DNA of 59,342 nt. Origin: a virus. Its lineage: Duplodnaviria > Caudoviricetes. Numbering within the stretch: the stretch's first letter is position 1; the number at the start of each line of letters is the position of its first letter. The stretch covers positions 1 to 59,342 of IMG/VR virus record IMGVR_UViG_3300030419_004548; one strand, given 5' to 3'. The notes below the pieces were generated by a model. That model made no database searches. It was not told the DNA's origin and was given only the letters and a program-made list of their open reading frames with translations. Of this stretch, positions 16,506-40,251 are shown one piece after another. Both the position numbers and the translations under genes were made by a program.

Positions 16506-16514
16506 AGTCTCCTA

Positions 16515-18567: not shown

Positions 18568-19027
18568 TTGATTTATCTACGTGTTGTGTTATTCCTAATG
18601 ATTTACAAGCATCAAGAAATTCATATTTACTAAATGATTCTGCACCATCGACATCAAGAAACGTTTCATAGTAACCACCATCAGGTTTAGGATAGTTCTT
18701 TCTTTGGTCTTTTGGTATCTCTTTTACTTTGGCAACTTTGTAGTACCATAACTCAGGTTCACCTTCAGGATAAATCATACCCATAGCTCCCATATTAATT
18801 AAAGAAGGATACCATTCTAATCCTCGTTCTCTGTCTTCTATTTTTAATTGTTTTACCAATGATGTATAATTTTGTGTCTCTTCATCACACTCATTTAATT
18901 TAAGTGCTGAGTTAGAAGTATAACCACAATCAAAACAAATATAAGATTCGAATCCTTCGTCCGTAACTTCTACAAAACAAGAATGATTATCACCATTGAA
19001 AGTAGGACAAGTTGTTTTCTTTTCCAT
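18548..19027 (-). CDS. Hypothetical protein with zinc-ribbon-like N-terminus
   Basis: CP...C...CFDCGY. Confidence 0.6.
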   Translation of the reverse strand: MEKKTTCPTFNGDNHSCFVEVTDEGFESYICFDCGYTSNSALKLNECDEETQNYTSLVKQLKIEDRERGLEWYPSLINMGAMGMIYPEGEPELWYYKVAKVKEIPKDQRKNYPKPDGGYYETFLDVDGAESFSKYEFLDACKSLGITQHVDKSNGKTTI

Positions 19028-19030
19028 TTA

Positions 19031-20341: not shown

Positions 20342-20342
20342 C

Positions 20343-21806
20343 TTAAACCTCGTATAACTGAAATTGTTTAATCGGCTTCCACTCTTTAAATGTAGTGTCT
20401 ATCGATTCTATAAAAGCTTTTCCCATATTCTTTGCTGATAAAGAAGTCTCAGGTAACAAACAATATTCTCTTCCTGCTTTACCTGCTTTCTGTCTGTATT
20501 CAGCTGAATGCTTATACCACTCATATAGTCTATCACCCGCATCTTCCCATTTAGGTCTGTCATCAAATATGTATGGTGTCTGTGGTGAACCTTGTAATGA
20601 ACGAGATGCAGGCCAAACAGGCTTTACCCATTCACCGTGTTCTGTATATCTACCATCGTGATTAGAACCCCACTCTTTTGTATAATCTTCTTTCATTAAA
20701 AGTGAACCATCTTCTTTTCTAAATCCACATTGGTCTTGCATTCCACCTGTAACGTTAACAACAATCGGTGTTCCTGCCATTAATGATTCTGCTGTACCAA
20801 GTCCGAATCCTTCATTAGATGCTATGTTAATTGTAACATCAGATATATTGTAAAGTATATTCATATCATCTTCATCTAATCTTTGTGGTATAAACATAAC
20901 TTCAGCGTTTGGACAATTATGTCTAACGACCTCTACTAAATCTGTACCGTTATTATCAACAGGTGCTGTTTTCATTATCAACAAACAATCTTTTCTTTCT
21001 TCGTCTGATAATTTATTTAACATATGTGCATATGCTAATACTACATCACCTGGCAGTTTTCTACGTATGTTTCTATTATTCCACAACACAACAAATTTAG
21101 TATTTTTATTTCTGATATTGTCGTCTTTCCATTTCATCATTTTATCATACGATTCTTTGTTTTTAGAATCAATAGGAAAGAATACTTTTTCATTAATACC
21201 ATGAGGTACAAGTGTATTCTGCCAATCTTTTACAGGAACATTCTTTCTAACGTTACGTACAATATTCCAAGTTTGTTTTGTTATGTTCATCAAACAATCT
21301 ACTGATTCATAGAAAGGTTCATTCCACATTGGATATGGTAAGTCATCCCAAATATTATAATAAAGAATTGGAATTCTTGAACGAATCTCGTGACTCATAT
21401 CAAACATAAATCTCCAAAATCTTGGGTCAGTATAAATTATTATAGCATCGGGATGATAATGATTCATCAGTTCTCTAACTAAAGTATCACTTCCGTATCC
21501 TGATATAGGATGTACAATTAGATTAGCATCTTCTACACCTGTTTTTGTTCTCAAGTCGTCAGAGCAATTAAATATTTGACCTTCTTCAGGATGTTTAATA
21601 GCACCACCTGCTTGTATCCAATCATACTTGTGACAAGTTTGTCTTATCATTTCTAAAGACATAACTCCTACACCTGATGCCATTCTACAATCATCAGAAA
21701 ATAATAATATCTTTTTCTTACCTGATGGACTCTTTCCTCTTAAATCAGATAACGGTTCTGCTTTAGCAGATACCTTTTTTAATTTAGGTAATTTTATATC
21801 AGCCAT
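20343..21806 (-). CDS. Glycosyltransferase, GT4-like
   Basis: SGVG, PHGIN, NRNIRRK, NEGFGLGTAESLMAGTPIV. Confidence 0.9.
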   Translation of the reverse strand: MADIKLPKLKKVSAKAEPLSDLRGKSPSGKKKILLFSDDCRMASGVGVMSLEMIRQTCHKYDWIQAGGAIKHPEEGQIFNCSDDLRTKTGVEDANLIVHPISGYGSDTLVRELMNHYHPDAIIIYTDPRFWRFMFDMSHEIRSRIPILYYNIWDDLPYPMWNEPFYESVDCLMNITKQTWNIVRNVRKNVPVKDWQNTLVPHGINEKVFFPIDSKNKESYDKMMKWKDDNIRNKNTKFVVLWNNRNIRRKLPGDVVLAYAHMLNKLSDEERKDCLLIMKTAPVDNNGTDLVEVVRHNCPNAEVMFIPQRLDEDDMNILYNISDVTINIASNEGFGLGTAESLMAGTPIVVNVTGGMQDQCGFRKEDGSLLMKEDYTKEWGSNHDGRYTEHGEWVKPVWPASRSLQGSPQTPYIFDDRPKWEDAGDRLYEWYKHSAEYRQKAGKAGREYCLLPETSLSAKNMGKAFIESIDTTFKEWKPIKQFQLYEV

Positions 21807-22273: not shown

Positions 22274-22684
22274 TTAACCCGAGATTATTACAAAACTTTT
22301 TTCTAATTCTTCAGCATACTTTAAAGCAGATTTTGTTCCGTTAGTTACATTCGTAGGAACAAATGCTATTACCATATCTGAATGTTCAACTAACTTTTTA
22401 TTACGACTATGATAGTTACCAACGTTATATGGTCTACCATAATAAAATCTTTCTAATACACAATGTAAATTATATGGTTCGTGATATGGTGGAAACTCGT
22501 GATACTCTAAATCAAAATCTAAAGCATATCTCTTTGCATATTTATCAGCACCATACTTTGCACCGCCTGAAACAATTATAACTTCTCCATTATACTTTTC
22601 TTTTAGTTTATAAATAAACTCTTGTATCTTTCTTTTGTTTGTGTATTCTCTGCTACCAATAATAGCACACTTAATCTTTGACAT
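22274..22684 (-). CDS. SLOG family protein (DUF2493/YspA-like)
   Basis: AIIGSR, VSGGAKYGAD, RNKKLV..SDMVIAF, GT. Confidence 0.8.
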   Translation of the reverse strand: MSKIKCAIIGSREYTNKRKIQEFIYKLKEKYNGEVIIVSGGAKYGADKYAKRYALDFDLEYHEFPPYHEPYNLHCVLERFYYGRPYNVGNYHSRNKKLVEHSDMVIAFVPTNVTNGTKSALKYAEELEKSFVIISG

Positions 22685-23180
22685 TTTTCTCCGGCTTTGG
22701 TGATGTTACAAAAACGGCCGCATCGTTGAATGCTTTCAAGCCAACAAATATATCTGCAGGTTCTTTATAATAAGAAGCATATGTATATTGACCTAAGTCT
22801 CTATGTTTTTCAGGTAATAAATTCATCCATATATGGTCTTGCGGTCTAACTTTTTCTATAGGTATTATCTCTGTTTTATGTGTTAATTTATCTGTTATAA
22901 AATCAGAAAATTCTTTGACTTTTATTGTTTCAACTTTATCATATACAAAAACGTGATGTACTCTTAACTTTAAAGTTTGTTCTACTTTTTGTAAATAGTA
23001 AATAACATAATCTCTGAGTGGTTTTGAATCATCAATAAAGTCATCTAAAAACATTCTGATACTAACTTTAACATCTCTATACTGCATAATCTTCTCCGTA
23101 AAATATATAGTTTCTCTGACCTTTAAACCTTGAATTAGGTCTGTCCATACGTTTTGCTGATACTTCATATAATTCTTCAT
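22671..23180 (-). CDS. Hypothetical protein
   Basis: ORF; true start probably internal (MQYRDVK) given the overlap with the upstream gene. Confidence 0.55.
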   Translation of the reverse strand: MKNYMKYQQNVWTDLIQGLKVRETIYFTEKIMQYRDVKVSIRMFLDDFIDDSKPLRDYVIYYLQKVEQTLKLRVHHVFVYDKVETIKVKEFSDFITDKLTHKTEIIPIEKVRPQDHIWMNLLPEKHRDLGQYTYASYYKEPADIFVGLKAFNDAAVFVTSPKPEKNVKD

Positions 23181-23883
23181 CTAATACCATACCCATAGAT
23201 TTTATATCTTCTATTATTTGCTGATGTTGTTTTCTGTATCTATAATATGAAGAATTTTTATGTTGAGGGTTAGGGAACAACTCAATTAATAGTGACTTCA
23301 AATTAGGTATAGTTTCTAAAGCACCTGCTACTACATCAGGTTCAGCACCATCAACGTCTACTTTCAAGTGTGTTGGATATGTCAAACCTTGTTTTACTAA
23401 ATTATCGATACTATCAACTACACATCCCGATTTATACCAAACACCTAATCTATGTTTAGACATTGCACTTACTTCTATTTCATTGGCACTACTTCCTGGG
23501 TCTGCATTATTTAAATGATTTAGAGTAGTGTAAGCAAACTCACTACCTATCCCCATAGGAAAAGATGTAATCTTATCAGATACTTTATTTAAAAGTATAT
23601 TCTGTTCTAAAACATTAATGTTATAACTTGCGGGTTCAAATGCTACAACTTGTACACCTCTTCTAACTGCAGCATAAATACTATAACTTCCGACACAAGC
23701 TCCAACATCCCACAACACATCGTCTTCTTCCATTCTATCTAACCAAGTAATAGTTTCAGGTTCCTTAGTCATCAGAGTTTTTGCTCGCATACCTAAGAAA
23801 GAGTCTTCATTATCTATTATAAAGTAAATAACATCACCATTAATAAATGTTCGTTTATTAGTCTTAAATTTTGTTTTAATCAT
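23077..23883 (-). CDS. FkbM family methyltransferase
   Basis: KEPETITW, WDVGACVGSYS, AFEP, LKVDVDGAE, LLIE. Confidence 0.9.
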   Translation of the reverse strand: MIKTKFKTNKRTFINGDVIYFIIDNEDSFLGMRAKTLMTKEPETITWLDRMEEDDVLWDVGACVGSYSIYAAVRRGVQVVAFEPASYNINVLEQNILLNKVSDKITSFPMGIGSEFAYTTLNHLNNADPGSSANEIEVSAMSKHRLGVWYKSGCVVDSIDNLVKQGLTYPTHLKVDVDGAEPDVVAGALETIPNLKSLLIELFPNPQHKNSSYYRYRKQHQQIIEDIKSMGMVLDEELYEVSAKRMDRPNSRFKGQRNYIFYGEDYAV

Positions 23884-24716
23884 AAATCTTTACACTTTGT
23901 AAATGCTTTACATTTTCCTACACATTTTTTGTATTCTATGTTTTTAACCTGCCCGGACTCATCATAACAAGAATCTAAGAACTCTTCAAATCTTGCTCTC
24001 ATCTTATTCATACTTGGAGTACCATTAGCAGGAACGTGTCTTTGTATTCTCTTCTGAGGAAAGTCTAAATTCTCATACAACTTTCTTTTGAAGATTAAAA
24101 ACTCGATATCAATCATTTCTACAGGAACGTTATGTTTTTTCGAATAGTATTCTTTGTACAATAATAATTGGTCACTCTTTACAGCATTTGCTTTCTGATA
24201 TTTATTCCAACCCATTGTTGCTGTCTTGATGTCAATGATTTTTATCTTACCACTTATCTCATCTTTCATTACTACATCAAGAAATCCAAGAAAGTGTAAA
24301 TCACCACGTATAGGTATAGCCAATCTTTCTTCTATGCCAAGAAGTGTCCAATTTCTTTTACTGAAGTATTGGTTACGTTTCTTTCTGAACCAATCTATTA
24401 TCTCTAATCCTTGTTCATAAAACTCAACCATATCTTCTCTTTTTACTAAGTGTAACTTTTCAGTTTCTACTATTTCTTTATCGTAAAACTCTTTCATTTT
24501 ACGTCTTAGTAAATCTTCTAAGTTTTGTTGGTCTGCTTCTTTAGCAGTAAAGTTATACATACAACCAAGATAAAGTTGAATTACTTCGTGCATAGCACTA
24601 CCAAAGATAGTGTGTATCGAAGGTTCACTTGTTTTAATCTTGTCTACGTATTGTAACTTCCACTGATAAGGACATTGATTCCAAAGTGAATATTGACTAT
24701 AACTTACTTGTCTCAT
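23880..24716 (-). CDS. PD-(D/E)xK nuclease (RecB/Cas4-like exonuclease)
   Basis: SYSQ..CP, FGSAMHE, GFLD, IIDIKT, QLLLY, C-terminal cysteines. Confidence 0.85.
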   Translation of the reverse strand: MRQVSYSQYSLWNQCPYQWKLQYVDKIKTSEPSIHTIFGSAMHEVIQLYLGCMYNFTAKEADQQNLEDLLRRKMKEFYDKEIVETEKLHLVKREDMVEFYEQGLEIIDWFRKKRNQYFSKRNWTLLGIEERLAIPIRGDLHFLGFLDVVMKDEISGKIKIIDIKTATMGWNKYQKANAVKSDQLLLYKEYYSKKHNVPVEMIDIEFLIFKRKLYENLDFPQKRIQRHVPANGTPSMNKMRARFEEFLDSCYDESGQVKNIEYKKCVGKCKAFTKCKDL

Positions 24717-24826
24717 TTGTTTTTGAATCTTTCTTCAAGTTTATCTGCTAACCAATCTACTATATCAGTAGACCATACTAAAAACATTATAGCTAAAAAT
24801 GTGCCCCACGATTCTAATGTACTCAT
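24713..24826 (-). CDS. Small membrane peptide (37 aa)
   Basis: Hand-translated MSTLESWGTFLAIMFLVWSTDIVDWLADKLEERFKNK; TAATG and ATGA coupling on either side. Confidence 0.6.
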   Translation of the reverse strand: MSTLESWGTFLAIMFLVWSTDIVDWLADKLEERFKNK

Positions 24827-25251
24827 TACTTACCCCACTTTCCACGACCAACAAGTGTCGCCATTATTCCATAGTTTGAAACATCAAGATAAGCATCTTC
24901 AAGAGGTTCATCTTTTACTGCTGAATCACGACCTGTCATTATAAGAGTTTTAACTCTCTGTAGTTTGTCGTTCATACGAAACCAAAGACCTGTAAGTGAT
25001 AACTTTATTTCTTCAGGTGTTTTTAATTGTGTACCAACTGAAATATTACCCGGACCATAATCGTGTTGTTTGTGACAAAACAATTCATATTGTTCTCTCT
25101 GTAATTTTTTGAACTCAGCAGTCATCTCAGGCCATTCTTTTTCCATTAGTGTCACAATATCACTATCTGATTTATCTTTATACACTTTTTTAGTGCTAGC
25201 TTCTTTTATTGTTTTAGGCATATTAACTCCATTACTTTTTAAATTTTTCAT
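24826..25251 (-). CDS. Nucleotide modification associated domain 1 (DUF1599) protein
   Basis: KQHDYGPGNI, FRMNDKLQR, LEDAYLDVSNYGIM. Confidence 0.8.
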   Translation of the reverse strand: MKNLKSNGVNMPKTIKEASTKKVYKDKSDSDIVTLMEKEWPEMTAEFKKLQREQYELFCHKQHDYGPGNISVGTQLKTPEEIKLSLTGLWFRMNDKLQRVKTLIMTGRDSAVKDEPLEDAYLDVSNYGIMATLVGRGKWGK

Positions 25252-25840
25252 CTTTATAAGGGAAAGGTTCTTTTAATTTTTCTACTCTTGAATCATCTTG
25301 AAACCAAGCTACAATACTATATTTTGTACCACTCACTAAAGGACTTACTTGATGTGTAGAATGTCCTGAATATGCGACACCATCACCCATTCCTAATTTT
25401 AAATTTGGGTCAGATTTAAGTTGAAAGTCTGCACCATCGTGTTCATCAGAGTCACTTAAATTAATAGAAAATGATACAAAACTAATTCTACCTTCTGCGT
25501 GCCACGAGAGTCCATCACCCGGTCTTCTGTATTTCATTATGTGCCAATACCGTGGTTTATGAATATTTGTTTCGTAGTAAAATTCTAACTTTTTTCTTAG
25601 TTTTTCAAAAAAGTGAGGGAACTCTTTAAATGACCAATATTGTCTATCAACTTCATACAAGCCTTTGTCAGGTCTTCGTAACTTGACGAGGTCTGCACCT
25701 CCACCATCAGGAAATATTTCTGTTAACCTACGTATTTCCATACACTCTTCTCTACTCAAAATATTCTTAATATGTAAGTCAGGTTGAGTAGGATATACTA
25801 ATGGTACTCCTGCAGAATTTTTTATGATTCGTTGTGTCAT
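25232..25840 (-). CDS. 2OG-Fe(II) oxygenase
   Basis: KY..GDGLSWHAE, SINLS...DGADF, HQVSPLVSGTKYSIVAW. Confidence 0.8.
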   Translation of the reverse strand: MTQRIIKNSAGVPLVYPTQPDLHIKNILSREECMEIRRLTEIFPDGGGADLVKLRRPDKGLYEVDRQYWSFKEFPHFFEKLRKKLEFYYETNIHKPRYWHIMKYRRPGDGLSWHAEGRISFVSFSINLSDSDEHDGADFQLKSDPNLKLGMGDGVAYSGHSTHQVSPLVSGTKYSIVAWFQDDSRVEKLKEPFPYKDEKFKK

Positions 25841-26424
25841 ATTATCTCGTCAATTATTCCTACTTCAAGTGCCTGTTCGGCGGTCAAGTAACTATCAAAT
25901 TTATTAATATTTTCCCAATATTCAAAGTCTTTTTTTGTAACTTCTGCCATTAATTTATTACATCTATCCGTTAAGTCCTTGAAGTGTTCTGATGCTCTTT
26001 GAAAGTCAGCTACTTTTTCTTGTATACCAATCTGACCATCGTGAACCATTATACTTGAATGTTTATGTGCTTGTCGTTTCCCTGTTCCTGAAGCAAGTAT
26101 TACTGCTCCTGCACTCATACAAGTACCAAGACAAATAGTATTTACCTTTACAGGTAAACTTCTCATCTTATCTATAAGTCCAAACATAGCATATGTATCA
26201 CCACCAAATGAATTGATGTTTAGATTTATATCTGCTTTAGGATTAAATCTATGTAATATGTCCATATGTATCGCACCTGAATGTAAAGTCTCTCCACCTA
26301 TATCACCTGCCAAGTATAAAGTGTTTGTATCTGTATTGATTCCCCACTCTAACTCTTTCATCAACATTTCGTGAAAGTTTCTGTAACCTTCATTTGCTTG
26401 TAAATTTCTAAGATTCATAATCAT
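25837..26424 (-). CDS. ClpP-like serine protease
   Basis: INSFGG, CMSAG (Ser), MVHD (His), DSYLTAEQALEVGIIDEI (Asp). Confidence 0.9.
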   Translation of the reverse strand: MIMNLRNLQANEGYRNFHEMLMKELEWGINTDTNTLYLAGDIGGETLHSGAIHMDILHRFNPKADINLNINSFGGDTYAMFGLIDKMRSLPVKVNTICLGTCMSAGAVILASGTGKRQAHKHSSIMVHDGQIGIQEKVADFQRASEHFKDLTDRCNKLMAEVTKKDFEYWENINKFDSYLTAEQALEVGIIDEII

Positions 26425-28530: not shown

Positions 28531-28806
28531 TTAATTTAATTGTCGTAAATATTCTAAAACTTCAAATTCTGTTTCTGTAGATGGAAACCCTGTAAATCCG
28601 TTTTCATCATTAATCATTACAAAAGGAAGTATTCCGATATCTTCTTTAAGTTCGTGTAAAGTGTCTTCTGCTTTCTGATACTCTTCGTTGTTTTCAGGTT
28701 GAGATATATCAATCGTTTTATATTCAAACTTATATCTTTCCATAAAAGAAACAGCATATTGACAATGCTTACAAGCTATCATTGAATTATAAAATATCTT
28801 AATCAA
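28531..28806 (-). CDS. Glutaredoxin-like protein
   Basis: CKHC active site, LPFVMIN..GF. Confidence 0.8.
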   Translation of the reverse strand: MIKIFYNSMIACKHCQYAVSFMERYKFEYKTIDISQPENNEEYQKAEDTLHELKEDIGILPFVMINDENGFTGFPSTETEFEVLEYLRQLN

Positions 28807-31319
28807 AAGAACCTCTCTAATGTAAATTTTTTATCTACAGGTTTTGACCAACCCATTGCTTCATAAAACATCATAATTTTACGATGAAGATTTTTGTCGT
28901 ACATTTTATCGTAATCTATATAATCTCGAATGTATTGAAGAATTTCTTTTGGGTCTTCATAACCTTTGTATGCTAAACTTTCGATACCTAATGGATTCTT
29001 TGTGAGATAAACCCATTTGATTTTTTCAGCTGAACTTATATATAAATATTGCTTAGAAACCTCAAAATGTAATAATAAATCATTATAATTAACAGCAGAC
29101 TTAACGTGTACAGGTGCACCTGATTTGAAAGTAGTAAACTTGTCATCTTCTAATTTACGTTCTACGTATTTAGATAAATTCTTAACACCTGTAGGCATTG
29201 ATATACCATCTATAGGCATCGTATTCATAGAAGATTTAAACTTTAATATTCTTTCATCTATTTTTTCTTTAGGAACATTCGCAAGAACATCATCAAGTAC
29301 CTCTTTCAAAAGTTTACCACAAGCAGGTGGGAAGTTTGAACGTACCGTATCGATACCTTTAACTAACATCTTGTTCACTTCAACACCATTGTCATTAATA
29401 ATCTTCATACCATATCGTTTCTTTGCAATAAACAATCCTGATATACCTATCACTTCTTGTTTAATTTCAAATCTATGGTCTTCTATATTACAAAACTTCT
29501 GTGCAAAATAATCATAACTATTATTCAAATAATCTTGAAGTTCTGATGCGATACTAAGAATACGTTTAGTCATCATAGGTTTTGAATTTACATTCTCATT
29601 AGGATATCTATGTTTTACTAAAGGTAATGCTGATGCGAAGATTGAATCTGTATCAATATAAATCACGTGGTCATCATCTGTTCCCAATTCATTATTGTAA
29701 AAATGATTTGTAATCGTTCTACTAAACTTAATTAATGATTGACCGGTTAGTGTAGTAGCCTCTGCATTATCAATATCATAAAATCTAAATACAGATAGAC
29801 CAAGAACACCATACAAACTATTCAACATAATCTTTTGAATCAACTGCCTTCTATCAAAATATTCATAACGTTCTGTATTACCATCGTTACCAAACTTCTT
29901 TGCTAATTTTCTATACTCTACTCTTTCATCAAACCACTTTGAAAGTATAGCAGGAATCAACCCTGCTTTATCATTACGATATAAAACTCCATTTGCTGAT
30001 ATAGAAATTTTGTTGTCAGTAACATAACTTTTAAAGTCTTCATAATTCATTGATGCTACTTGAGTACCATTGTCATCTTTGATTATATAAGTTTTCTCAA
30101 CTTCACGAATGAAATCTTCAGGCTCCCACTCTTCTAATTTACCAAGTTTAGTTTCCGGACTAATATTCAAAGACATAATAACTGAAGGATACATAGATGT
30201 TACGTCTAAATCAAATACCCAATCGTGTTTACCTTTTTGAGGGTCAGCAACATATGCACCTGCAAACTGAAAGTCTTCTGCTACTTTAGGTTTAGGCTTT
30301 TTGTCAGGAGCTACAATTCCTAAATTTCTTAGATAAACTAATATAGCACCTTCAAGATATCGAGAGGATGTAAATACATTTTCATAAGGAACGTGGCCTG
30401 AGTGACATAACGCTTGTGTAATACTAATAAAATCTAATTTCTTATCAAGTTCATCTACAATTCTAACGTCTTGTACATTATATAAAACAAACTTTGTTCT
30501 ATCATTATCATATAAATCATTAAGTGTTCCATCATATTCTACTTTCTTTTCACCAAGTTCTTCTTCAGCAATAGCATCTAATCGATAACTTGACTTTTCT
30601 GTATATGTAAATTTTCTATACAAAAATAAATAATCTAAATGTGATACACCTGCTATCTTGTGTTTCTCTTTAAACGTAGACCATTGTACAACTCCTATAG
30701 GACTCAACATAGATGCTACTTTTTTACCTACAACTTTACAAGCACGATTATATAGATACGGAACATCAAACTTTTCTGTATTCCATCCTGATACGATAGT
30801 AGGATTTATCTCTTTCCATCTTGAAAGAAATCTTTGTAACATATCAAATTCTGTTTTGAAACGTTCTACTTTAAAATTATTTCTTAGTATGTCGGGATGA
30901 TTTAAATCAACTTTGTTGTCAGAGTCTAACACTAAACAATGATATGTACCATCTGTACAATCATTAAAACCTATAGATGTTATTTCATTAGGTGCTTCAT
31001 TAGGGTCAGGAAATCCTTCTGTTACCTTTACCTCAATATCAAAAAATAGTTTTCTATGATTTGTTGATACGTCATCAGAGTCTGCATATCTATCAACTAA
31101 CACACGAGTTTCTACAGGAACATCTGATTCAAATAGTCCTCGTTCTTTAGGGTCATACTCATATACCTTTGTTAGTTTGTCTCCAAATAACGAAGTGTAG
31201 TTACCTGTAGGAGACTTCTTATATGCATATGGTTTAAACTTGAAAGTTTCATAACCTTTTACATCATCCCAAAGATGAACTTTTTTAGTTTTTATATCGA
31301 AGTAAATATTTTGATACAT
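28803..31319 (-). CDS. DNA polymerase family B (T4 gp43-like)
   Basis: Exonuclease FFDIE, GWNTEKFD, YNVQD; polymerase DVTSMYPS, KIMLNSLYG, YIDTDS, KKRY; C-terminal clamp-binding TLERFF. Confidence 0.97.
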   Translation of the reverse strand: MYQNIYFDIKTKKVHLWDDVKGYETFKFKPYAYKKSPTGNYTSLFGDKLTKVYEYDPKERGLFESDVPVETRVLVDRYADSDDVSTNHRKLFFDIEVKVTEGFPDPNEAPNEITSIGFNDCTDGTYHCLVLDSDNKVDLNHPDILRNNFKVERFKTEFDMLQRFLSRWKEINPTIVSGWNTEKFDVPYLYNRACKVVGKKVASMLSPIGVVQWSTFKEKHKIAGVSHLDYLFLYRKFTYTEKSSYRLDAIAEEELGEKKVEYDGTLNDLYDNDRTKFVLYNVQDVRIVDELDKKLDFISITQALCHSGHVPYENVFTSSRYLEGAILVYLRNLGIVAPDKKPKPKVAEDFQFAGAYVADPQKGKHDWVFDLDVTSMYPSVIMSLNISPETKLGKLEEWEPEDFIREVEKTYIIKDDNGTQVASMNYEDFKSYVTDNKISISANGVLYRNDKAGLIPAILSKWFDERVEYRKLAKKFGNDGNTERYEYFDRRQLIQKIMLNSLYGVLGLSVFRFYDIDNAEATTLTGQSLIKFSRTITNHFYNNELGTDDDHVIYIDTDSIFASALPLVKHRYPNENVNSKPMMTKRILSIASELQDYLNNSYDYFAQKFCNIEDHRFEIKQEVIGISGLFIAKKRYGMKIINDNGVEVNKMLVKGIDTVRSNFPPACGKLLKEVLDDVLANVPKEKIDERILKFKSSMNTMPIDGISMPTGVKNLSKYVERKLEDDKFTTFKSGAPVHVKSAVNYNDLLLHFEVSKQYLYISSAEKIKWVYLTKNPLGIESLAYKGYEDPKEILQYIRDYIDYDKMYDKNLHRKIMMFYEAMGWSKPVDKKFTLERFF

Positions 31320-31837
31320 TAAATACCTGTAGAGCCAAATCCACCTGAACCACGTTCAGAGTCAGATAAATTATCAACAATTTCTAATTTGATTTCTCCT
31401 AACATTGGAGATACAACTTGAAATAATCTTGTATGTTTTTCAATTATAAACTCTTCATCTGATAAATTATCAATAGGAACCATAAACTCTCCACGATAAC
31501 CTGAATCCATAATTCCAACACTATTAGACATTCTCAAAGGAGTTTTTGATATTGAAGAACGTGGTGTGACCATATAAGATATATTCGTATCTTGTATAGA
31601 ACCTCCAAACATATTTTCTATCATCTCTTTAGGTATATTATCTGTTAAATGATTTGAAACTACTTGTACCATTTCTCCTTTAATTCCTAACGGAACAATC
31701 ATTCCTAATTCTTTTGCAGGTATAGTTACTTCTTCAGGAAAATATAAATCAACTCCTGCATCACCTTCTACATTGACTCTCTTTTTATATAGAGATTTCA
31801 ATGATTCATCTAAGATTTCTATTCTTAGTGTATTCAT
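31319..31837 (-). CDS. dut: dUTPase (trimeric)
   Basis: AGVDL, PRSS, GIMDSGYRG, RLFQ, RGSGGFGSTG. Confidence 0.95.
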   Translation of the reverse strand: MNTLRIEILDESLKSLYKKRVNVEGDAGVDLYFPEEVTIPAKELGMIVPLGIKGEMVQVVSNHLTDNIPKEMIENMFGGSIQDTNISYMVTPRSSISKTPLRMSNSVGIMDSGYRGEFMVPIDNLSDEEFIIEKHTRLFQVVSPMLGEIKLEIVDNLSDSERGSGGFGSTGI

Positions 31838-31942: not shown

Positions 31943-34672
31943 TTAGAAATTGACCGATAGGCCAAGGTTGAAGCTTCTTGGAGTTCCAAGAAAGACTTCA
32001 GCATTATGAGCTAAGTGCATTTTATCACCATACCCATTATACTTTGAGTTATCAACTGCGTCTTGGATGTAAACATCATCAAGTGCGTTGAATAGATGAC
32101 CATGTAAAGTCATATCAAGTCCTGCAATTTCAGGTAATTTATAAGATAGATGTAAGTCTAACTTACCATAAGATGGAGTTTTCCATACTTGCGCTCTATC
32201 TGCATCACCGTCTACTTCACGACTATCAGGACTCCAATCAGCATAGTGATTGTCATACCATCTGTAAAGTCCTTGAACACTTAGACCTTCAATAGGCTTT
32301 AGTGTAAGACCACCAACATATGATGTCTGTGGCATATCACCGACTTTAAGATTATTAAGAGCATATTCATACTCTGTAGATGTTTGACCAATGATTTGAT
32401 TATCATCATTGTATTCCATCTCTGTATAATCACCATTGGCATCGCCATCGAAATACCAATCACCGACACTTACAGCAATATCTAAATCAACCATTTCGTG
32501 AAGGGCTACTTTAGATTCAATCTCTACACCTGAGTGTGATTGATTTACACCTGTAAGATAAATGATGTCAGTATCACCTGAGTCACCTTGTCCTGTAGTA
32601 ACAGACTTAGTAAGGTTTCTATCCTTCCATTGTGTGTTATAGTAACTACCTTTGATAGCAACTAAACCACTTTTATATTCACCGCCAATTTCCATTGATG
32701 TGAATTTTTCGTTGTCAGGATTTGTAGATACGTTACCATCATAATCAATAACGTTATCTAAGATTGGTGGTTTCTGTACATATCCAAGATTAGCAAATGC
32801 TGATAGTCTATCATCAAGATTATATCTACCACCACCTTTAACTTGGAATGTTGTGATGTTGTCAGCAGTAACTTTAGAAGCATCAACTGCAAAATGGTCT
32901 AAGTAAGAATATCCAATAGTAGATATACCACCCATACCATAAAGACTAAACTTCTCAACATCATACTTACCTTGTAAGAAAGCACCGAACCAATCAACCG
33001 TTGTTTCGTTGTGATATGCGATAATGTCACCTAAACGAACCACTTTACCATCAGCGGCATTATCATCAGCGTAGTCTACATAGTAGTCTCCACCAAGTAA
33101 ATCACGAACTTCACGCGCGTGTTCTATACCAGCAGTTCTCCAATCAATACCGACTTGAACTTCAAGTGCATCTGAAACATCATAGTTTAATTTAGAAATC
33201 AAACCATAAGTGTTTTGTCTATTGATTGAATTACGAAGGATACCTGTTGAACGATTTTCAACATCAGACCAAGCAGAATCTACATTAGCAGAGTTCTGTT
33301 CAATCTCAGCATTCCAATCCCAAGTCCAAGGCGAACTTGCATACCAAGCATTTCCTTCTATCGCGGGTTGTCTACTTACGCTACCATAAGTTCCTGTTCC
33401 TCCACCTGAACCACCTGACCAATACAGAACAGAACTTAACCTCATTTGGTCATTCAAATCATAAAAATGATTTAAGTTGACAAGAGGCTTGTGAAAAAAG
33501 TTCTCTCTTTCATTTAGAAAGTTAGAACTATATCTATCGGTTGTACGCGCTCCGTACATATACCAATATTGTTGACCTTTATATGAAGGGTCAACGGGTG
33601 CCACGTTTTGATTGAAGAATCTACCTGCTTCGTGTTCAAACTTTTCGCCTGAAACATAAGCAGAGTCATTATACCCATCAATACTACCTGCTAACTCTTG
33701 TGAGTAAGTGGCAATATTTTGTTTGTATAGATTCTGTCCGTGACGTTGTGGTGCACCGATTGCATACAACTCAAAACGTTGGTCATCACTTACAGCATAA
33801 CTCGCTCCCGCGTAATATGCCCAAGCATCTGTCCAAGTTCCATCAATGAATCCGTCACCTGTTTTACGAACTATAGTTCCACTCAAAGCTAACTTATCTT
33901 TGATAAGACCTGAGTTATAGTTCAGAGTGGTTTTAAGAAATCCACCCTCACCAACTTCCTGCTTTAACTTACCGCCCTTCTCTTGAGCCGCAGGGTCAGT
34001 TATTATGTTCATAGTTCCACCAATTGATGGTGTTGCGAGATTCACGGCTGATAGACCTCTTTGCATCTGAATTGAAGAAGTAGCATCTCCTACTCCATCC
34101 CAATTAGACCAATAGACCCATCCGTTCTCCATATCATTCTGAGGAACTCCGTTTATCATCACAGCAACATTTCTTTGGTTAAAACCACGTACATTGATAC
34201 GAGCATCACCCGCACCACCACCTTGTTGAGTTGCATATACTGAAGGTGTAGTGTTAAGAATCATTGGAATGTCTTGAGAACCTAATCTCACTTCCATCTC
34301 TTCTTTACTAACATTCGTATAAGCAACAGGTGTTGTTTCATCAGCACGTGAAGCCAAGACTTCTAATGCTGATAGTGCTACAACGTCAGCTACTAAATTG
34401 AAGCTAACTGAAGCAACTATATCGCCTACCTCCACGCTTTGGGTTTGGGCGATGTACCCGATGTACGATGCAGTAATATCAAAAGTACCTGAACCGGTTT
34501 CGATAACAAATTTACCAGCGTCATCACTAACGCCACCAAGTTCAGTTCCTTCAACAACTACATTCGCTCCAACGAGTGGACCATCTTCAGTACCAACATA
34601 TCCTGTAACAGCTTGTCCGAAAACAAGACTAAAAGACATTGCTAATACTGAGATTAGATTACGATAATTCAT
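31943..34672 (-). CDS. TonB-dependent outer-membrane receptor with N-terminal carboxypeptidase-regulatory-like domain
   Basis: Signal peptide MNYRNLISVLAMSFSLVFG (ATG at 34672, AGGAG 7 nt upstream); PLVGANV..GT..G.SD..GKF domain; plug TPSVY...INVRGF..NVAVMINGVP; amphipathic beta strands; C-terminal PRSFNLGLSVNF beta-signal. Confidence 0.95.
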   Translation of the reverse strand: MNYRNLISVLAMSFSLVFGQAVTGYVGTEDGPLVGANVVVEGTELGGVSDDAGKFVIETGSGTFDITASYIGYIAQTQSVEVGDIVASVSFNLVADVVALSALEVLASRADETTPVAYTNVSKEEMEVRLGSQDIPMILNTTPSVYATQQGGGAGDARINVRGFNQRNVAVMINGVPQNDMENGWVYWSNWDGVGDATSSIQMQRGLSAVNLATPSIGGTMNIITDPAAQEKGGKLKQEVGEGGFLKTTLNYNSGLIKDKLALSGTIVRKTGDGFIDGTWTDAWAYYAGASYAVSDDQRFELYAIGAPQRHGQNLYKQNIATYSQELAGSIDGYNDSAYVSGEKFEHEAGRFFNQNVAPVDPSYKGQQYWYMYGARTTDRYSSNFLNERENFFHKPLVNLNHFYDLNDQMRLSSVLYWSGGSGGGTGTYGSVSRQPAIEGNAWYASSPWTWDWNAEIEQNSANVDSAWSDVENRSTGILRNSINRQNTYGLISKLNYDVSDALEVQVGIDWRTAGIEHAREVRDLLGGDYYVDYADDNAADGKVVRLGDIIAYHNETTVDWFGAFLQGKYDVEKFSLYGMGGISTIGYSYLDHFAVDASKVTADNITTFQVKGGGRYNLDDRLSAFANLGYVQKPPILDNVIDYDGNVSTNPDNEKFTSMEIGGEYKSGLVAIKGSYYNTQWKDRNLTKSVTTGQGDSGDTDIIYLTGVNQSHSGVEIESKVALHEMVDLDIAVSVGDWYFDGDANGDYTEMEYNDDNQIIGQTSTEYEYALNNLKVGDMPQTSYVGGLTLKPIEGLSVQGLYRWYDNHYADWSPDSREVDGDADRAQVWKTPSYGKLDLHLSYKLPEIAGLDMTLHGHLFNALDDVYIQDAVDNSKYNGYGDKMHLAHNAEVFLGTPRSFNLGLSVNF

Positions 34673-34703
34673 AATCATTCTCCTATTGTTGTGTTTGAAC
34701 ATT

Positions 34704-34737
34704 GACACATTTTTCTACAGGTGTGTCGTCTGCCTGT
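34704..34737 (-). promoter_or_regulatory. Candidate H-type RNA pseudoknot in the receptor 5' leader
   Basis: ACAGG-CAGAC-GACACA-CCUGU-AGAAAAA-UGUGUC: 5-bp and 6-bp fully Watson-Crick stems. Confidence 0.55.
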
Positions 34738-34748
34738 CCGCTTTTGTG

Positions 34749-36758
34749 TTAATTTGCATAATCCTGGTCATCATTGTCACCTGTCATCGGTATAATTTCA
34801 CACGAATCATTATTACAGAATTTATCTACTTCTGCTTCTTCGTGTTTAATCACACCAAATGTCAGACGACCAAGTTTTGAAACCTGTTTCTGATAAGTCT
34901 TCTCATCAATAGCTTCGTAAGGCATCTGTGGATAAGCACCATAATCGTGTCTTGGCAACAGACTTATTCCTTTTAAGTGATATTGATAATAATTCAATGC
35001 GGGTGCAATCTGTTCTGATTCAATTTCAGGATTGAACGTTACCGTACAACTAACTTGATTATCAGCCCAATGTCTTTGCATAAATGCCGCTAAACTAAAT
35101 TGTTCCCATATTGAAAGTTCTCCTGCAGTTCTGATGCCTTCTCCTACATCTACAGGAACTTCTACAACCATTGTTGTGTCTTCAGAACCAAACGCAGGTT
35201 CTACTTTATATCCTGCTTTTTTCATTGGTTCTAATAAATCTGAATGTTTTGAAACTCTAATTCTTCTAATATAAAATCTTGATTCAGGATAATGGAGACC
35301 AGGTGTCGCACCTGCTAATAGAGATACCGTTCCACTTGGTTTAACTGATGTTGTTTTTATAGAACGAGGAACAGCCATCCAATCTGAATATTGTTTATCC
35401 CAATCTTGAATAACATCGTATCCATCATTCAACCATTTTTTCAATTCACCTAATCCACGATTAGTAATGAACTGAGCAACACCACTAACACTACAACCAA
35501 TTCTTCTGTTTCTTAACATCACTCTATTTGTATCACTCCAATGAGTTCTACCTAACGTAACCGTCTTAGCATAAAGATACGCATATTTAAGAGTACGTGC
35601 ATAATCTTCAAAACTTTCGTGATTCTCAGGAAACGTTTCTACTAAACAGCATAACTCGTAAGACTCAAGCGTCTGCTCTAAACAAGGGTTGCCTCCCATA
35701 GCTCTGTGGTCTTTGTTGTCTCCCCCATTTTTCATTCTTGAGTACTTTCTCATATTGTCCAACCAAGCAAATCCTGGTTCTCCATTATCATTTATTCTCT
35801 TCGCGGCCTCTGAATAATCCATTCCTAACTCAGCAAATATACTATTGTTAGATGTCCAACCATATTGGTCACGATGAGGATTGACTTTATAATTTTTTAA
35901 ATCTAAATATTCTTCATTATCAGGTTCACCAAATACAATCTCTGCAGTTCTTCTTACATTACCCGCTACAACACATTTACCAATTAGATTCATTATGTCT
36001 ACGATTGTTGTTATTGTGATTGGTTCTCCACTATTCTTTTCAAGTACTTTTCTAATGTCTTCGTGTACTTCTAATAATGGTTCGTGACCACTTGCTACAC
36101 CACCAAATCCACTGATAGGTTCACCTGCAGGTCTTATCTTTGTATAGTCAAACTCAACAGGTGCTTGTCCGTGAAAGTAACTCTCTAATAATAGTTTCAT
36201 TGATTCTACCCAACCTTCTCTTGTATCGGGTATCTCATAAACTTGTTCTTCTCTATCTTTTTCTATACCTTTAACTATTATTTCTCCTGCACCTTTTGTA
36301 TCAAAACCAACACCAACACCTAACATACTCGCATCCATTAAGAAACAGAATGGCTTAGCATAATCTTCTTTAAGTGTTTTTGTTGATACAAAGGCACAAT
36401 TATTTAGGGCGGCATATAATCCTTTTTCTTCTGTGATTGGTGTACCCATAGCCCACAGACCGCGTCCAGGAGGCAAAAACTTCATTTGAAATATACGCTC
36501 ATACATATCTTGAGCAGACTTTTGAGCTTGCCACGCATTCCACCCTAATTGGTGTGATTCAATCCAATTCTTTTGCATATTGTAAGTTCCCTCTACAACA
36601 CGTTGAACCGTCTCCCACCATCGTTCATTCTTCCCATCTGCTTTAATTCGTGAGTAGGTTCTCATATAAACTAATTCTCCCAATCCATTAAAACCAAAAG
36701 GTGCTTTTTTCCGTTTATAACCATTAATAAAATTATCTGAGAGTTTAAATTTTTCCAT
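34749..36758 (-). CDS. nrdJ: Class II (adenosylcobalamin-dependent) ribonucleotide reductase, monomeric type
   Basis: RTYSR, LPPGRGLW, LNNCAF, VVAGNVRRTAE, NPCLEQ, CCLVE, RNRRIG, VKPSGT, C-terminal CNNDSC. Confidence 0.95.
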   Translation of the reverse strand: MEKFKLSDNFINGYKRKKAPFGFNGLGELVYMRTYSRIKADGKNERWWETVQRVVEGTYNMQKNWIESHQLGWNAWQAQKSAQDMYERIFQMKFLPPGRGLWAMGTPITEEKGLYAALNNCAFVSTKTLKEDYAKPFCFLMDASMLGVGVGFDTKGAGEIIVKGIEKDREEQVYEIPDTREGWVESMKLLLESYFHGQAPVEFDYTKIRPAGEPISGFGGVASGHEPLLEVHEDIRKVLEKNSGEPITITTIVDIMNLIGKCVVAGNVRRTAEIVFGEPDNEEYLDLKNYKVNPHRDQYGWTSNNSIFAELGMDYSEAAKRINDNGEPGFAWLDNMRKYSRMKNGGDNKDHRAMGGNPCLEQTLESYELCCLVETFPENHESFEDYARTLKYAYLYAKTVTLGRTHWSDTNRVMLRNRRIGCSVSGVAQFITNRGLGELKKWLNDGYDVIQDWDKQYSDWMAVPRSIKTTSVKPSGTVSLLAGATPGLHYPESRFYIRRIRVSKHSDLLEPMKKAGYKVEPAFGSEDTTMVVEVPVDVGEGIRTAGELSIWEQFSLAAFMQRHWADNQVSCTVTFNPEIESEQIAPALNYYQYHLKGISLLPRHDYGAYPQMPYEAIDEKTYQKQVSKLGRLTFGVIKHEEAEVDKFCNNDSCEIIPMTGDNDDQDYAN

Positions 36759-38356: not shown

Positions 38357-39353
38357 TACGTGTAAGTGTATCCAAGGTTGACCAACTTTCTCTCAACCAC
38401 ACTTCTAAATTTTGAATCTCATTTGAGAATCCGTCTTCTAAATACATTTGACGAAATTTGAAACTATTTAAAGAGTTTGGCTTGTTATCAACAAAATCAA
38501 GAACTTTTTGTTTCGCATTACCACTTATAATTATCTCCTTCAAATCCATTAATTCAAAATTTCTTTTTAAAATATCTAAATTATCTGATAACCTATTATC
38601 TCTACTAACTAATTCTTTTAGACTTATAGGCTCTGTAGAAATTTCAGGATATAATTTAATCAAAGTCTTTAGACCTATTCCTTTAACACCTGGAATATTA
38701 TCAGACTTATCACCATCTACCATTCTGTACATCAAAAAGTTTTCAGGATGTATATCATACTCTTCCATCAAAGTTTCAGTATTATATAACTTTTTCTTAG
38801 ATGGACTATATACATTTATCCTATCATCTACTAATTGTAGAAAGTCTTTGTCTGTAGACATTATGGTGCAACGGGTAAACTTTCCCTTATTTGCTACGTA
38901 TGAAATTACATCATCTGCCTCCACATTGTCAAGCGAAAAAGTTTGAACAGGTAAACATTCTAAGTACTCCATCAATCGTGACATCTGTTGTACCATAGAA
39001 GTGTGTTCATCACCTTCTTTACTAAACTCTACTCTTCTATTTAATTTAGATTTAAAGGCACGACCTGCTTTATAATCAGGAAATAATTTCTTACGTTTTT
39101 GTGAGCCACCTTTACCATCAAAGACGATTAGGATTCTTGTAGGCCTAATAAGTTTTATTATATAACTTAGTGACCTCAAGAATCCTATCAATCCTCCTAT
39201 GTGATAACCATTGTCACTCATCATAGGTATAGCACTAAAACATCTGATAAAGTTATTTAGACCATCTATTACTAACACATGGTCATTTAACTTCAATGGC
39301 TTTGATGGATTATTTTTTATCTCATCAAGCAAACTCAGATATCGTTTTTTCAT
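38349..39353 (-). CDS. 5'-3' exonuclease / RNase H (T4 rnh, PolI N-terminal family)
   Basis: IDGLN, VFDG, YKAGR, EADD, STDKDFLQL, GDKSDNIPGVKGIG. Confidence 0.95.
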   Translation of the reverse strand: MKKRYLSLLDEIKNNPSKPLKLNDHVLVIDGLNNFIRCFSAIPMMSDNGYHIGGLIGFLRSLSYIIKLIRPTRILIVFDGKGGSQKRKKLFPDYKAGRAFKSKLNRRVEFSKEGDEHTSMVQQMSRLMEYLECLPVQTFSLDNVEADDVISYVANKGKFTRCTIMSTDKDFLQLVDDRINVYSPSKKKLYNTETLMEEYDIHPENFLMYRMVDGDKSDNIPGVKGIGLKTLIKLYPEISTEPISLKELVSRDNRLSDNLDILKRNFELMDLKEIIISGNAKQKVLDFVDNKPNSLNSFKFRQMYLEDGFSNEIQNLEVWLRESWSTLDTLTRNG

Positions 39354-40251
39354 CGTATTCCTTTACTTTTTGTGCTATGTATTCTTCAAGTGTATGTGTA
39401 GGTTTCCAACCTAAGAGTTCGTATGCTTTCGTGTCTGTACATAGAGTCTCTCGCATTTCTCCAGGTCTCGGTCCTATATTTACACTATCAGATTTATATA
39501 GTTTAACAACCTCATTTATACTATAGTTCTTACCTGTACCTAATTCAAAGTACTCTGCTCTTAAATCAGCAATCTTATCTTGACAATCAATCAATGCACT
39601 ACATATATCTAATACGTGAGTAAAGTCTCTTCGTTGTTCACCATCATTAGTAATTGTCAATGGTTCACCTCGTTCTTTCAACTCATCAAATATAGAAAGA
39701 ACCGTTGCATATGCACTTTCTGCTGGTATCATATAATCACCATACACGTTATAGAATCGTGTTATTATTGTAGGTAAGTCATAAACCTTAGAATATAACT
39801 CACATAACAATTCACCACTATACTTGTAAAAAGTATAAGGATTGGCATAATGGTCGCCGTGAATAGAACTTGAACCTGCGTATACTACAGGAATATTTCC
39901 ATTAACTCTTGCCCACTCTAAAATATTTTGTGTTCCAACTACATTAGCTGCGAACGTATTTTGAGGGTCTGTGAAAGATGGTTGTATCCTTGCTAAAGCA
40001 GCGAGATGATATATCATATCAGGTTTCCAATCACCCTCACCTACTACTACTTCGTGAAGATGTTTATCAAAGAAATAATCTGTAAGGTCAAACTCGTGAT
40101 ATGTTACTCTGTCATTATCAATAATATTCAAAGGAGAACCTGTTGAGTAATTATCTAAAACTTGAATGTAAGTGCTAGGTTGTTCTTTTAAGATTTTACT
40201 AATTAAATTAGTACCTACAAAGCCCGCACCGCCTGTAATCAATATCTTCAT
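39325..40251 (-). CDS. NAD-dependent epimerase/dehydratase
   Basis: ITGGAGFVG, HLAA, GSSS, YTFYK, RFYNVYG, RDFTHV. Confidence 0.9.
   Translation of the reverse strand: MKILITGGAGFVGTNLISKILKEQPSTYIQVLDNYSTGSPLNIIDNDRVTYHEFDLTDYFFDKHLHEVVVGEGDWKPDMIYHLAALARIQPSFTDPQNTFAANVVGTQNILEWARVNGNIPVVYAGSSSIHGDHYANPYTFYKYSGELLCELYSKVYDLPTIITRFYNVYGDYMIPAESAYATVLSIFDELKERGEPLTITNDGEQRRDFTHVLDICSALIDCQDKIADLRAEYFELGTGKNYSINEVVKLYKSDSVNIGPRPGEMRETLCTDTKAYELLGWKPTHTLEEYIAQKVKEYDEKTISEFA

Follow-up and report, generated by a model that had tools for sequence, protein, structure and literature searches.

A TonB-dependent transporter gene of Marinimicrobia origin, with a putative pseudoknot leader, in the replication module of T4-like marine phages

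The IMG/VR record IMGVR_UViG_3300030419_004548 is a linear virus sequence of 59,342 bp with an estimated completeness of 32%; we refer to this whole stretch as the window. Every long open reading frame (ORF) in it lies on the minus strand. Pfam matches define a T4-like replication module comprising gp32, a RecA/UvsX-like protein, a 5'-3' exonuclease, a DnaB-like helicase, the ribonucleotide reductase gene nrdJ, a dUTPase (dut), a family B polymerase (polB) and clamp-loader subunits, and a baseplate-wedge match is also present. Within this module lies a gene for a TonB-dependent transporter (TBDT). A preliminary description of the window had placed it 76 nt after nrdJ and just before dut, with a strong Shine-Dalgarno sequence and a terminator of its own and with no terminator separating it from nrdJ, and had called an intact protein of about 909 aa with signal peptide, plug, barrel and C-terminal Phe; it proved right in every detail that we checked. 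The ORF (31943..34708, minus strand) is open for 921 aa from a GTG, and an ATG at 34672 (MNYRNL...), conserved in relatives, gives the 909-aa protein. The Shine-Dalgarno sequence AGGAG (34684-34680) lies 7 nt before this ATG, and no hairpin-plus-T-tract terminator was found on the coding strand of the spacer between nrdJ and the TBDT. An intrinsic-terminator-like GGGGGGATTAATTTCCCCCC hairpin with a T-tract begins 11 nt past the TBDT stop codon, and a promoter-like TTGACC box follows between this hairpin and dut; the hairpin and a TTGACT box are also kept in two related loci (L177, L178).

The predicted layout of the protein is a signal peptide (residues 1-19), a CarboxypepD_reg-like domain (~20-95), a linker with the TonB box (~96-120), a plug, a 22-strand barrel and a terminal Phe. 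The hydrophobic signal sequence with its N-terminus MNYRNLISVLAMSFSLVFGQA and the C-terminus ...LSVNF can be read directly. Pfam recognised CarbopepD_reg_2 (47.9 bits) and Plug (PF07715; 53.3 bits against a cut-off of 23.9; residues 124-232 of the 921-aa frame), and the standard barrel family TonB_dep_Rec had no Pfam match in the protein. A TonB-box candidate, ...LSALEVLASRA..., was assigned by position and conservation; its residues E104, L106, A107, S108 and R109 are invariant across 65 viral and cellular sequences, among which the plug is also mostly invariant. In an AlphaFold2 model (mean pLDDT 72.5) the barrel is confident (~80) and the plug poor (~30). Foldseek matched this model to solved TBDTs at E-values of 2e-24 to 1e-18, with PqqU, FhuA, Fiu, YncD and FecA at 2e-24 to 1e-21; because many unrelated siderophore, PQQ and copper TBDTs rank equally, the comparison gives no clue to the substrate. 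No specific NCBIfam model of a TBDT subfamily matched, the best match by sequence in the PDB (9gbc_A) covers the N-terminal domain and plug only, a tblastn search of GenBank phages gave just 12 records of at most 30% identity with no informative relative among them, and a search of the Atlas returned only the protein's own viral and Marinimicrobia clusters. Assignment to the SusC/RagA type was rejected, there being no SusC/RagA match in NCBIfam and no adjacent SusD-like gene; SusD family members were absent from the phage flanks and from among 71 neighbours of 11 cellular orthologues.

The N-terminal domain and the unmatched barrel raise the question of whether the barrel serves for something other than import, such as protein secretion or a role in phage release. 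The Oar TBDT of Myxococcus likewise has an N-terminal CarboxypepD_reg-type domain. TonB-dependent secretion via Oar is documented (PMC11658791, PMC6434023). The Oar-specific family was unmatched in both Pfam and NCBIfam, however, no candidate cargo gene adjoins the phage TBDT, and the host orthologue is found among housekeeping genes without a secreted partner. We consider such a use of the barrel very improbable.

Close homologues of the gene are very numerous in metagenomes, where the best 120 are all 86-93% identical. IMG/VR contains 354 stretches that match, and the locus counts rest on the best 80, which we retrieved. The gene nrdJ lies upstream of the TBDT in all 68 loci that include upstream DNA (in the remaining 12, the contig ends inside the TBDT or at most 115 nt before it). 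The spacing of nrdJ and the TBDT is 33-95 nt, or by ORF call a slight overlap, in 64 of these 68 loci; in the other four, a gene for a peroxiredoxin (L015/L016) or a glutamine-synthetase-like protein (L048/L049) lies between them. Downstream, polB follows in 59 of the 80 loci and the others end at contig ends, so that the conserved order in relatives reads gp32-uvsX-exo-dnaB-nrdJ-TBDT-polB. Both junctions of the TBDT in the window are bridged by DNA contigs from two separate studies. The constant synteny and these contigs bear out the initial view that the locus is not an assembly chimera. The phages that share it form a clade of large and widespread T4-like marine phages with estimated genomes of about 185 kb, and all relatives seen carry a class II nrdJ.

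The interval bordered downstream by polB and upstream by nrdJ is a hot spot for accessory genes: depending on the relative, it is also occupied by genes for a glutamine-synthetase-like protein, a peroxiredoxin, a DNA methylase or dUTPase, and dut itself is an accessory gene of the closest relatives only (4 of the 80 TBDT loci). We read the adjacency of nrdJ and the TBDT as most likely stemming from one inherited insertion into this hot spot rather than from functional coupling. Among the side observations on this interval, the glutamine-synthetase-like gene is short (~325-346 aa) and recurs (L010, L017, L073, L050, L048, L205), a TBDT-less phage included, the peroxiredoxin is of the AhpC/TSA type (L015/L016), and the methylase is of the N6/N4 DNA type (L006). 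Among 43 loci fetched with the phage PolB, 27 contain the TBDT, 11 have nrdJ directly before polB and no TBDT, two are uninformative and three are distant and have no nearby nrdJ; the TBDT is thus missing from 11 of 38 informative loci. On the PolB tree it is absent from one of five lineages and has been lost recently in two further cases, which requires at least three changes. One of the 11 TBDT-less loci shows how the gene went missing: relative to L178, L177 has a clean deletion of 2782 bp with an 8-nt overlap (L177:4409-4416 against L178:4070-6851) between flanks that are 98-99% identical. The deletion takes the leader and nearly the whole TBDT, fusing the last nrdJ codons to the last 11 TBDT codons and altering the C-terminus of NrdJ.

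The TBDT shares the composition of the phage that carries it. GATC does not occur in the window (170 expected) or in the TBDT (9.5 expected), and neither does ACWGT (115 and 5.8 expected, respectively). In the wider comparison, viral TBDTs contain 0.50 GATC per kb and phage flanks 0.48, against 4.2 in cellular orthologues and 4.4 in cell flanks. The same avoidance in the TBDT as in the phage genes had been pointed out before, with the argument that the gene is no fresh host pickup; both statements stand, and because the TBDT shows the phage's own site avoidance we conclude that it has long resided in these phages. The gene call and the phage residence of the TBDT are solid. A GATC-free TBDT is found in 45 of 82 relatives, and L077/L085 and L185 are without any GATC avoidance. 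GC content is 0.39-0.40 over the TBDT, above the flanks; the rise comes mainly from codon positions 1 and 2, and at third positions the TBDT has 0.25 versus 0.14-0.25 in neighbouring genes.

We compared the proportions of nonsynonymous (pN) and synonymous (pS) differences between relatives. In close relatives the TBDT has a pN of 0.05 and a pS of 0.29, like polB, giving a pN/pS of about 0.15. In distant relatives its pN rises only to 0.07-0.08, compared with 0.23-0.37 for polB, helicase and exonuclease (polB 0.27-0.30), and pS is near saturation in both TBDT (0.52-0.59) and polB (0.66-0.74). A low pN beside a nearly saturated pS means that the identity of the TBDT proteins reflects constraint, with at most modest later exchange. 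The frame is intact in all full-length viral copies examined, plug identity between phage and cell copies is 0.86, and no clade-fixed differences fall in the plug or the TonB-box linker. On these comparisons, the TBDT is under strong purifying selection.

An alignment of the spacer between nrdJ and the TBDT, which forms the 5' leader of the latter, contains a block conserved far above the surrounding DNA. This block is predicted to fold as a 34-nt H-type pseudoknot of two stems, with an invariant AAAAA (34714-34710) in its third loop. In a covariation alignment of 46 distinct leaders (A3), the pairing is present in 97% of cells and compensatory changes occur at 5 of the 11 pairs (for example AU to UA, AU to GC and GC to AU); cells with double changes number 32 versus 7.2 in shuffles (0 of 500) and at most 7 in slid controls. 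The support for the motif is this covariation rather than folding energy, as the minimum-free-energy z-score of the leader is only -1.73. In the minimum-free-energy fold, the stretch of about 20 nt from the pseudoknot to the Shine-Dalgarno sequence is unpaired; this fold also places the TBDT start codon within a small hairpin (GAUUAUGA/UCGUAAUC, 34655-34680, minus strand). The motif occurs once in the window, and a covariance model (R1) found no copy elsewhere in 735 kb of related phage and Marinimicrobia loci, the latter numbering 15. In Rfam 15 there was no relevant match to the leader at gathering score, and none at E<=10 on the coding strand. By pattern, at least 119 copies were located in IMG/VR, and among the 80 listed a TBDT start lies downstream in all 76 informative cases (eight of these N-termini were confirmed by eye). 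The element stays with the TBDT when another gene splits the TBDT from nrdJ, and it also precedes the host-like TBDT copy of L185. It was absent upstream of 37 cellular orthologues read by eye and from the leader of the phage's own gene 32. Since the motif is confined to phage TBDT leaders, we regard it as a phage-specific cis element of the TBDT. As judged from covariation and distribution, the leader pseudoknot is a new predicted RNA motif with a defined target gene.

These observations bear on the alternative that the TBDT is a functionless passenger: a recent pickup, a decaying gene or a chimera. Its GC content above that of the flanks would fit such an origin, as would its dispensability in some relatives. 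With intact frames and a low pN/pS, site avoidance equal to that of the phage, a leader RNA conserved with compensatory changes and independent contigs spanning the junctions, this alternative is effectively refuted.

To trace the source of the gene, we searched cellular genomes, one per GTDB species; relatives are encoded in 120 stretches, and we retrieved 75 loci. Nearly all of these relatives come from metagenome-assembled genomes (MAGs) labelled Marinimicrobia, Neomarinimicrobiota or Fidelibacterota and are 55-68% identical to the phage protein. In a sample of the phylum, the orthologue is present in 35 of 81 genomes as a single copy of at most 69% identity. Two closer matches (L085 and L087, 72-74%, labelled Methanobacteriota and Flavobacteriales) are mis-binned phage contigs with full phage synteny. 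Two further contigs deserve mention: a 'Winogradskyella' contig (L096) is essentially the same as a Marinimicrobia contig, a problem of MAG binning, and a 4.3-kb contig of a Marinimicrobia MAG (L089) has a TBDT that falls within the viral clan yet is rich in GATC like those of cells. In a FastTree phylogeny of 102 rows, with incomplete ORFs, L085 and L087 excluded, the viral TBDTs form one clan (support 100, stem 0.17). In a quick IQ-TREE phylogeny of 69 rows, a branch with SH-aLRT support of 100% separates off 32 rows, L087 and L089 among them, in agreement with the FastTree result. One group of phages, L185-L189, has the usual gene order and a TBDT 77% identical to a Marinimicrobia gene, and this TBDT nests with three cellular rows at 99% SH-aLRT. 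The L185 copy is host-like along the whole barrel, and a sliding-window comparison found no chimeric break. Forcing all phage TBDTs, L185 included, into one clan was not rejected by the approximately unbiased test (p 0.456). The L185-L189 TBDT must therefore be an early branch with slow evolution or else a host-derived replacement of later date; the nesting suggests a second acquisition or an allelic replacement in this group. On either scenario, the donor lineage of the TBDT is Marinimicrobia.

The cellular orthologue has a neighbourhood of its own. Where enough DNA precedes it (53 loci), a co-oriented SRAP/YedK gene comes before it in 30 cases, and dnaG is found nearby downstream in 28 loci. 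Within a few kilobases, subsets of 73 loci have genes for an S1/P1 nuclease (13), a nucleotide pyrophosphatase/phosphodiesterase (9), a deoxynucleoside kinase (13) and a histidine phosphatase (17). In such compact genomes, these neighbours are a weak hint at nucleic-acid-derived substrates.

The position of the TBDT behind a B12-dependent NrdJ had led to the proposal that it imports cobalamin as cofactor for this enzyme. The proposal draws on the constant adjacency of the two genes (nrdJ upstream in 68/68 loci, directly so in 64), on the lack of a terminator between them, on the B12 dependence of the phage nrdJ, and on a conservation of nrdJ and TBDT far above that of the neighbouring replisome genes. 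Several results speak against it. The phage protein had no match at E<=0.01 to TIGR01779 (BtuB, cut-off 599.7), in line with the earlier remark that it is not a recognisable BtuB, and the Marinimicrobia orthologue reaches no more than 24.4 bits, all from its plug. Just one cobalamin riboswitch was found in each of four out of five Marinimicrobia genomes, and it lies directly before a different TBDT of 688-717 aa, and this TBDT matches the BtuB model over its length. With Rfam, no cobalamin riboswitch was detected in the window, in four viral loci or upstream of any of seven orthologues. An RNR catalytic domain is present in four of the five genomes, and the two copies scanned with NCBIfam are dimeric, B12-dependent NrdJ_Z. 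With NrdJ_Z and a riboswitch-controlled BtuB-like TBDT present, the host lineage, and with it the candidate hosts, already owns a B12 route. Moreover, the co-occurrence of nrdJ and TBDT, proposed as a check, breaks down in the 11 relatives that retain nrdJ without the TBDT, one of them through the clean 2782-bp deletion, and in the four loci with an intervening gene the leader element stays with the TBDT. Import of B12 for NrdJ is thus unlikely, and we give it little credence. Cobalamin is probably not the substrate of the TBDT; a nucleotide precursor is a candidate suggested by weak neighbourhood hints.

A second component of the TonB pathway appeared in related phages. Among related records, all five with a completeness of 52% or more, the TBDT-deletion variant being one of them, encode a protein of 104-130 aa with a signal peptide, a short Pro-containing stretch and a TonB C-terminal domain (TonB_C; PF03544, 32-50 bits, above cut-off). 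By pattern, 31 viral loci have such a gene, in some of them directly upstream of gene 32. It was not found in the window, which represents one third of a genome, and a search for ExbB (PF01618) in the window and four longer related records, all of them incomplete, gave none. The protein is without a TonB-type membrane anchor and, from its length, is probably too short to span the periplasm. As Marinimicrobia TonB is only 31-37% identical, it gives no host link. Periplasmic TonB fragments are dominant-negative in Escherichia coli, and the phage protein may modulate or block TonB coupling. In one record (L216:1-684, plus strand), a MoxR/CobS-like AAA_5 ATPase gene precedes the TonB_C gene by about 700 nt, with a 111-aa ORF between them.

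Such a protein is compatible with a non-nutritional role, in which the phage TBDT, together with TonB_C and a glycan gene cluster, would alter the TonB-dependent surface of the infected cell, for example by replacing or diluting a receptor that this phage or its competitors use, and might so exclude superinfection. TBDTs are common phage receptors, and FhuA-pb5 and FhuA-Llp are among the fold matches. The temperate phage PA-2 reportedly alters the display of host receptors with its porin. The TonB_C-only protein, predicted to be periplasmic, in all five of the more complete records and ~18 kb of sugar-nucleotide and glycosyltransferase genes in the window would also fit envelope manipulation. 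The distribution of substitutions does not look like that of a receptor-escape variant: within the phage clade the predicted extracellular loops are as conserved as the strands (identity 0.80 vs 0.77), the two are about equally close to the host (0.62 and 0.64), and clade-fixed differences affect 7 of 302 loop sites. The candidate TonB box and the plug are constrained as in cells and a passive decoy would need neither, while extra copies of the phage's own receptor would trap its progeny. The pattern of conservation is that of a working transporter, not that of a decoy or receptor-escape variant, and we hold superinfection exclusion to be possible but doubtful.

Based on these results, we favour, with modest confidence, the view that the TBDT is a host-derived uptake gene, captured from Marinimicrobia by an ancestor of the phage clade and kept as a working transporter. 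We propose that an ancestor of these T4-like marine phages took the single-copy core TBDT from its Marinimicrobia (SAR406) host. In a slow-growing oligotroph, where infection takes long, the mRNA would be translated under the control of the pseudoknot leader; the protein would be exported by Sec, inserted by the host BAM machinery and energised by host TonB-ExbBD. It would thereby keep up or raise the uptake of whatever the host orthologue imports while host expression falls. Two metatranscriptome runs of one sample include contigs that match the window exactly over parts of the TBDT and of nrdJ, which indicates presence in RNA libraries only. Depth in these RNA libraries is thinner over nrdJ than over the TBDT; contig data of this kind cannot rank genes, and the conserved plug may attract relatives. 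No RNA contig bridging nrdJ and the TBDT was seen among 32 pieces listed, with 3045 further pieces beyond these.

Several considerations weigh against the proposal of a working uptake gene. The RNA-library contigs give neither transcript level nor strand, and carry-over of DNA is possible. Production of the protein and its arrival in the outer membrane are predictions, and the plug is poorly modelled (pLDDT ~30). Having been lost at least twice recently and being absent from one whole sister lineage, the TBDT is not essential. The anchorless TonB_C protein could block rather than support TonB coupling. Finally, taking the donor lineage as the phage host is the usual inference, which makes Marinimicrobia a probable host; nrdJ offers no further host link, since the RTPR-type nrdJ was not found in five Marinimicrobia genomes with the phage nrdJ as query.

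A bolder version of the uptake proposal, which we consider rather improbable, joins the parts into a regulated TonB-pathway module of SAR406 phages. Here a pseudoknot-gated TBDT and the secreted TonB_C protein would re-route limiting host TonB and import a nutrient, possibly derived from nucleic acids, for phage DNA synthesis, and the pseudoknot would be a ligand-sensing riboswitch or the operator of a gp32-like RNA-binding protein.

The coordinates of the features are collected in Table 1. The RTPR assignment of nrdJ rests on TIGR02505 (371.9 bits against a cut-off of 340.05); the protein also contains the Pfam domains RNR_Alpha, RNR-II_ins_dom and Ribonuc_red_lgC and matches PHROG 367 at 8e-137. 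Elsewhere in the window (3730-21806 and 39325-40251, minus strand), the ~18 kb of glycan and sugar-nucleotide genes encode GT2 and GT4 glycosyltransferases, a GDP-mannose 4,6-dehydratase, a UDP-glucose dehydrogenase and methyltransferases, along with several epimerases/dehydratases, including the Polysacc_synt_2 type, and a CMP-sugar-type cytidylyltransferase; such genes suggest synthesis or modification of a surface or virion glycan by the phage. Positions 22274-26424 (minus strand) contain genes for a SLOG/YpsA-like protein, an FkbM-type methyltransferase, a PD-(D/E)XK nuclease, a DUF1599 (nucleotide-modification-associated) protein, a 2OG-Fe(II) oxygenase and a ClpP protease.

Table 1. Positions of the TBDT, its leader and neighbouring genes in the window, and of the TonB_C genes in related records.
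Feature	Position	Strand	Basis
TBDT, 909 aa	31943..34672	-	Pfam, conservation, AlphaFold2 model, Foldseek
Spacer between nrdJ and TBDT (TBDT 5' leader), 76 nt	34673..34748	-	Read directly
Predicted H-type pseudoknot RNA motif, 34 nt	34737-34704	-	Leader alignment, covariation
Pseudoknot stem 1	34737-34733 with 34721-34717	-	
Pseudoknot stem 2	34727-34722 with 34709-34704	-	
Intrinsic-terminator-like hairpin and T-tract	31931-31912	-	Sequence
nrdJ, class II ribonucleotide reductase (RNR; adenosylcobalamin-dependent), monomeric RTPR type, 669 aa	34749..36758	-	TIGR02505, Pfam, PHROG
dut, dUTPase	31319..31837	-	Pfam dUTPase, 64.6 bits
polB, family B DNA polymerase	28803..31319	-	Pfam DNA_pol_B and exonuclease domain
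TonB_C gene	L216:1387-1701	+	
TonB_C gene	L217:1498-1890	-	
TonB_C gene	L220:1498-1854	-	
TonB_C gene	L218:1351-1686	+	
TonB_C gene	L219:1501-1836	-	

Flanked by phage genes on both sides, of cellular origin by phylogeny and conserved in related phages, the TBDT has the features of an auxiliary metabolic gene (AMG), with a metabolic effect that is predicted. In phages, the uptake-related auxiliary genes known to us encode, for the most part, components that are soluble or sit in the inner membrane. That a full outer-membrane TBDT evolves more slowly than the phage polymerase implies that, in these oligotrophs, phage production is limited by the capacity for transport across the outer membrane, and the effector of the pseudoknot, if found, could also reveal the substrate of the TBDT. 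The gene further provides a sequence-based link between a widespread clade of T4-like marine phages and Marinimicrobia/SAR406, a lineage that is abundant and uncultured; the first viral sequences associated with SAR406 that we met in reports come from single-cell genomes (PMC4611503). Ocean metaproteomes are stated to be dominated by TBDTs (PMC10504331). With up to 77% identity to their cellular counterparts, phage TBDTs could be mistaken for proteins of cells, and contigs of this phage clade have already been mis-binned into MAGs (L085, L087). In the literature we found no description of a phage clade with nrdJ and TBDT, of a Marinimicrobia-derived phage TBDT, of the leader motif or of the TonB_C companion; supplementary tables (for example Table S2 of PMC9723777) may list such genes.

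Comparison with known systems sets the phage gene apart in several respects. With the core TBDT of Marinimicrobia, an uncharacterised orthologue group, it shares the signal peptide, CarboxypepD_reg domain, candidate TonB box, invariant NGVPQNDMENGWVYWSNWDG plug block, barrel and terminal Phe; it differs in its setting in a replication module with no SRAP/YedK gene upstream, in its pseudoknot leader and in its GATC depletion. In its 22-strand fold, plug and candidate TonB box the phage protein is like BtuB (TIGR01779), whereas it exceeds BtuB in length by about 300 aa, carries a CarboxypepD_reg domain at its N-terminus, falls below the family score and has no cobalamin riboswitch. The autoregulatory pseudoknot of T4 gene 32 and the preQ1-I riboswitch are H-type pseudoknots of mRNA leaders. 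The TBDT leader resembles them in its compact two-stem architecture, its A-rich third loop and the stretch of about 20 nt before the Shine-Dalgarno sequence, but its sequence is unrelated and has no Rfam match. Cyanophage pstS is a known phage gene for nutrient acquisition, and T5 Llp is known to block FhuA. Like the SusC-like TBDT of the marine megaphage Mar_Mega_1 and the ExbB of Lentisphaerae phages, the present TBDT is a host-derived uptake component in a phage genome. One sentence on a marine-phage TonB-dependent receptor guesses at carbohydrate uptake (PMC9723777) and ExbB is named as a candidate AMG (PMC11361711). The TBDT described here differs from these nutrient AMGs by its clade-wide fixation, documented selection, origin, regulatory RNA and natural deletion variants. 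Outside the plug it shows no relationship to them, given the ceiling of 30% identity in the tblastn search of GenBank phages, and a SusD partner was not found. T5 Llp (PDB 8a60) and the Lc porin of PA-2 are likewise products of phage genes that alter the function of outer-membrane receptors during infection; they are, however, a small inhibitor lipoprotein and a porin, whereas the phages of this clade encode a full transporter in which every transport element is conserved.

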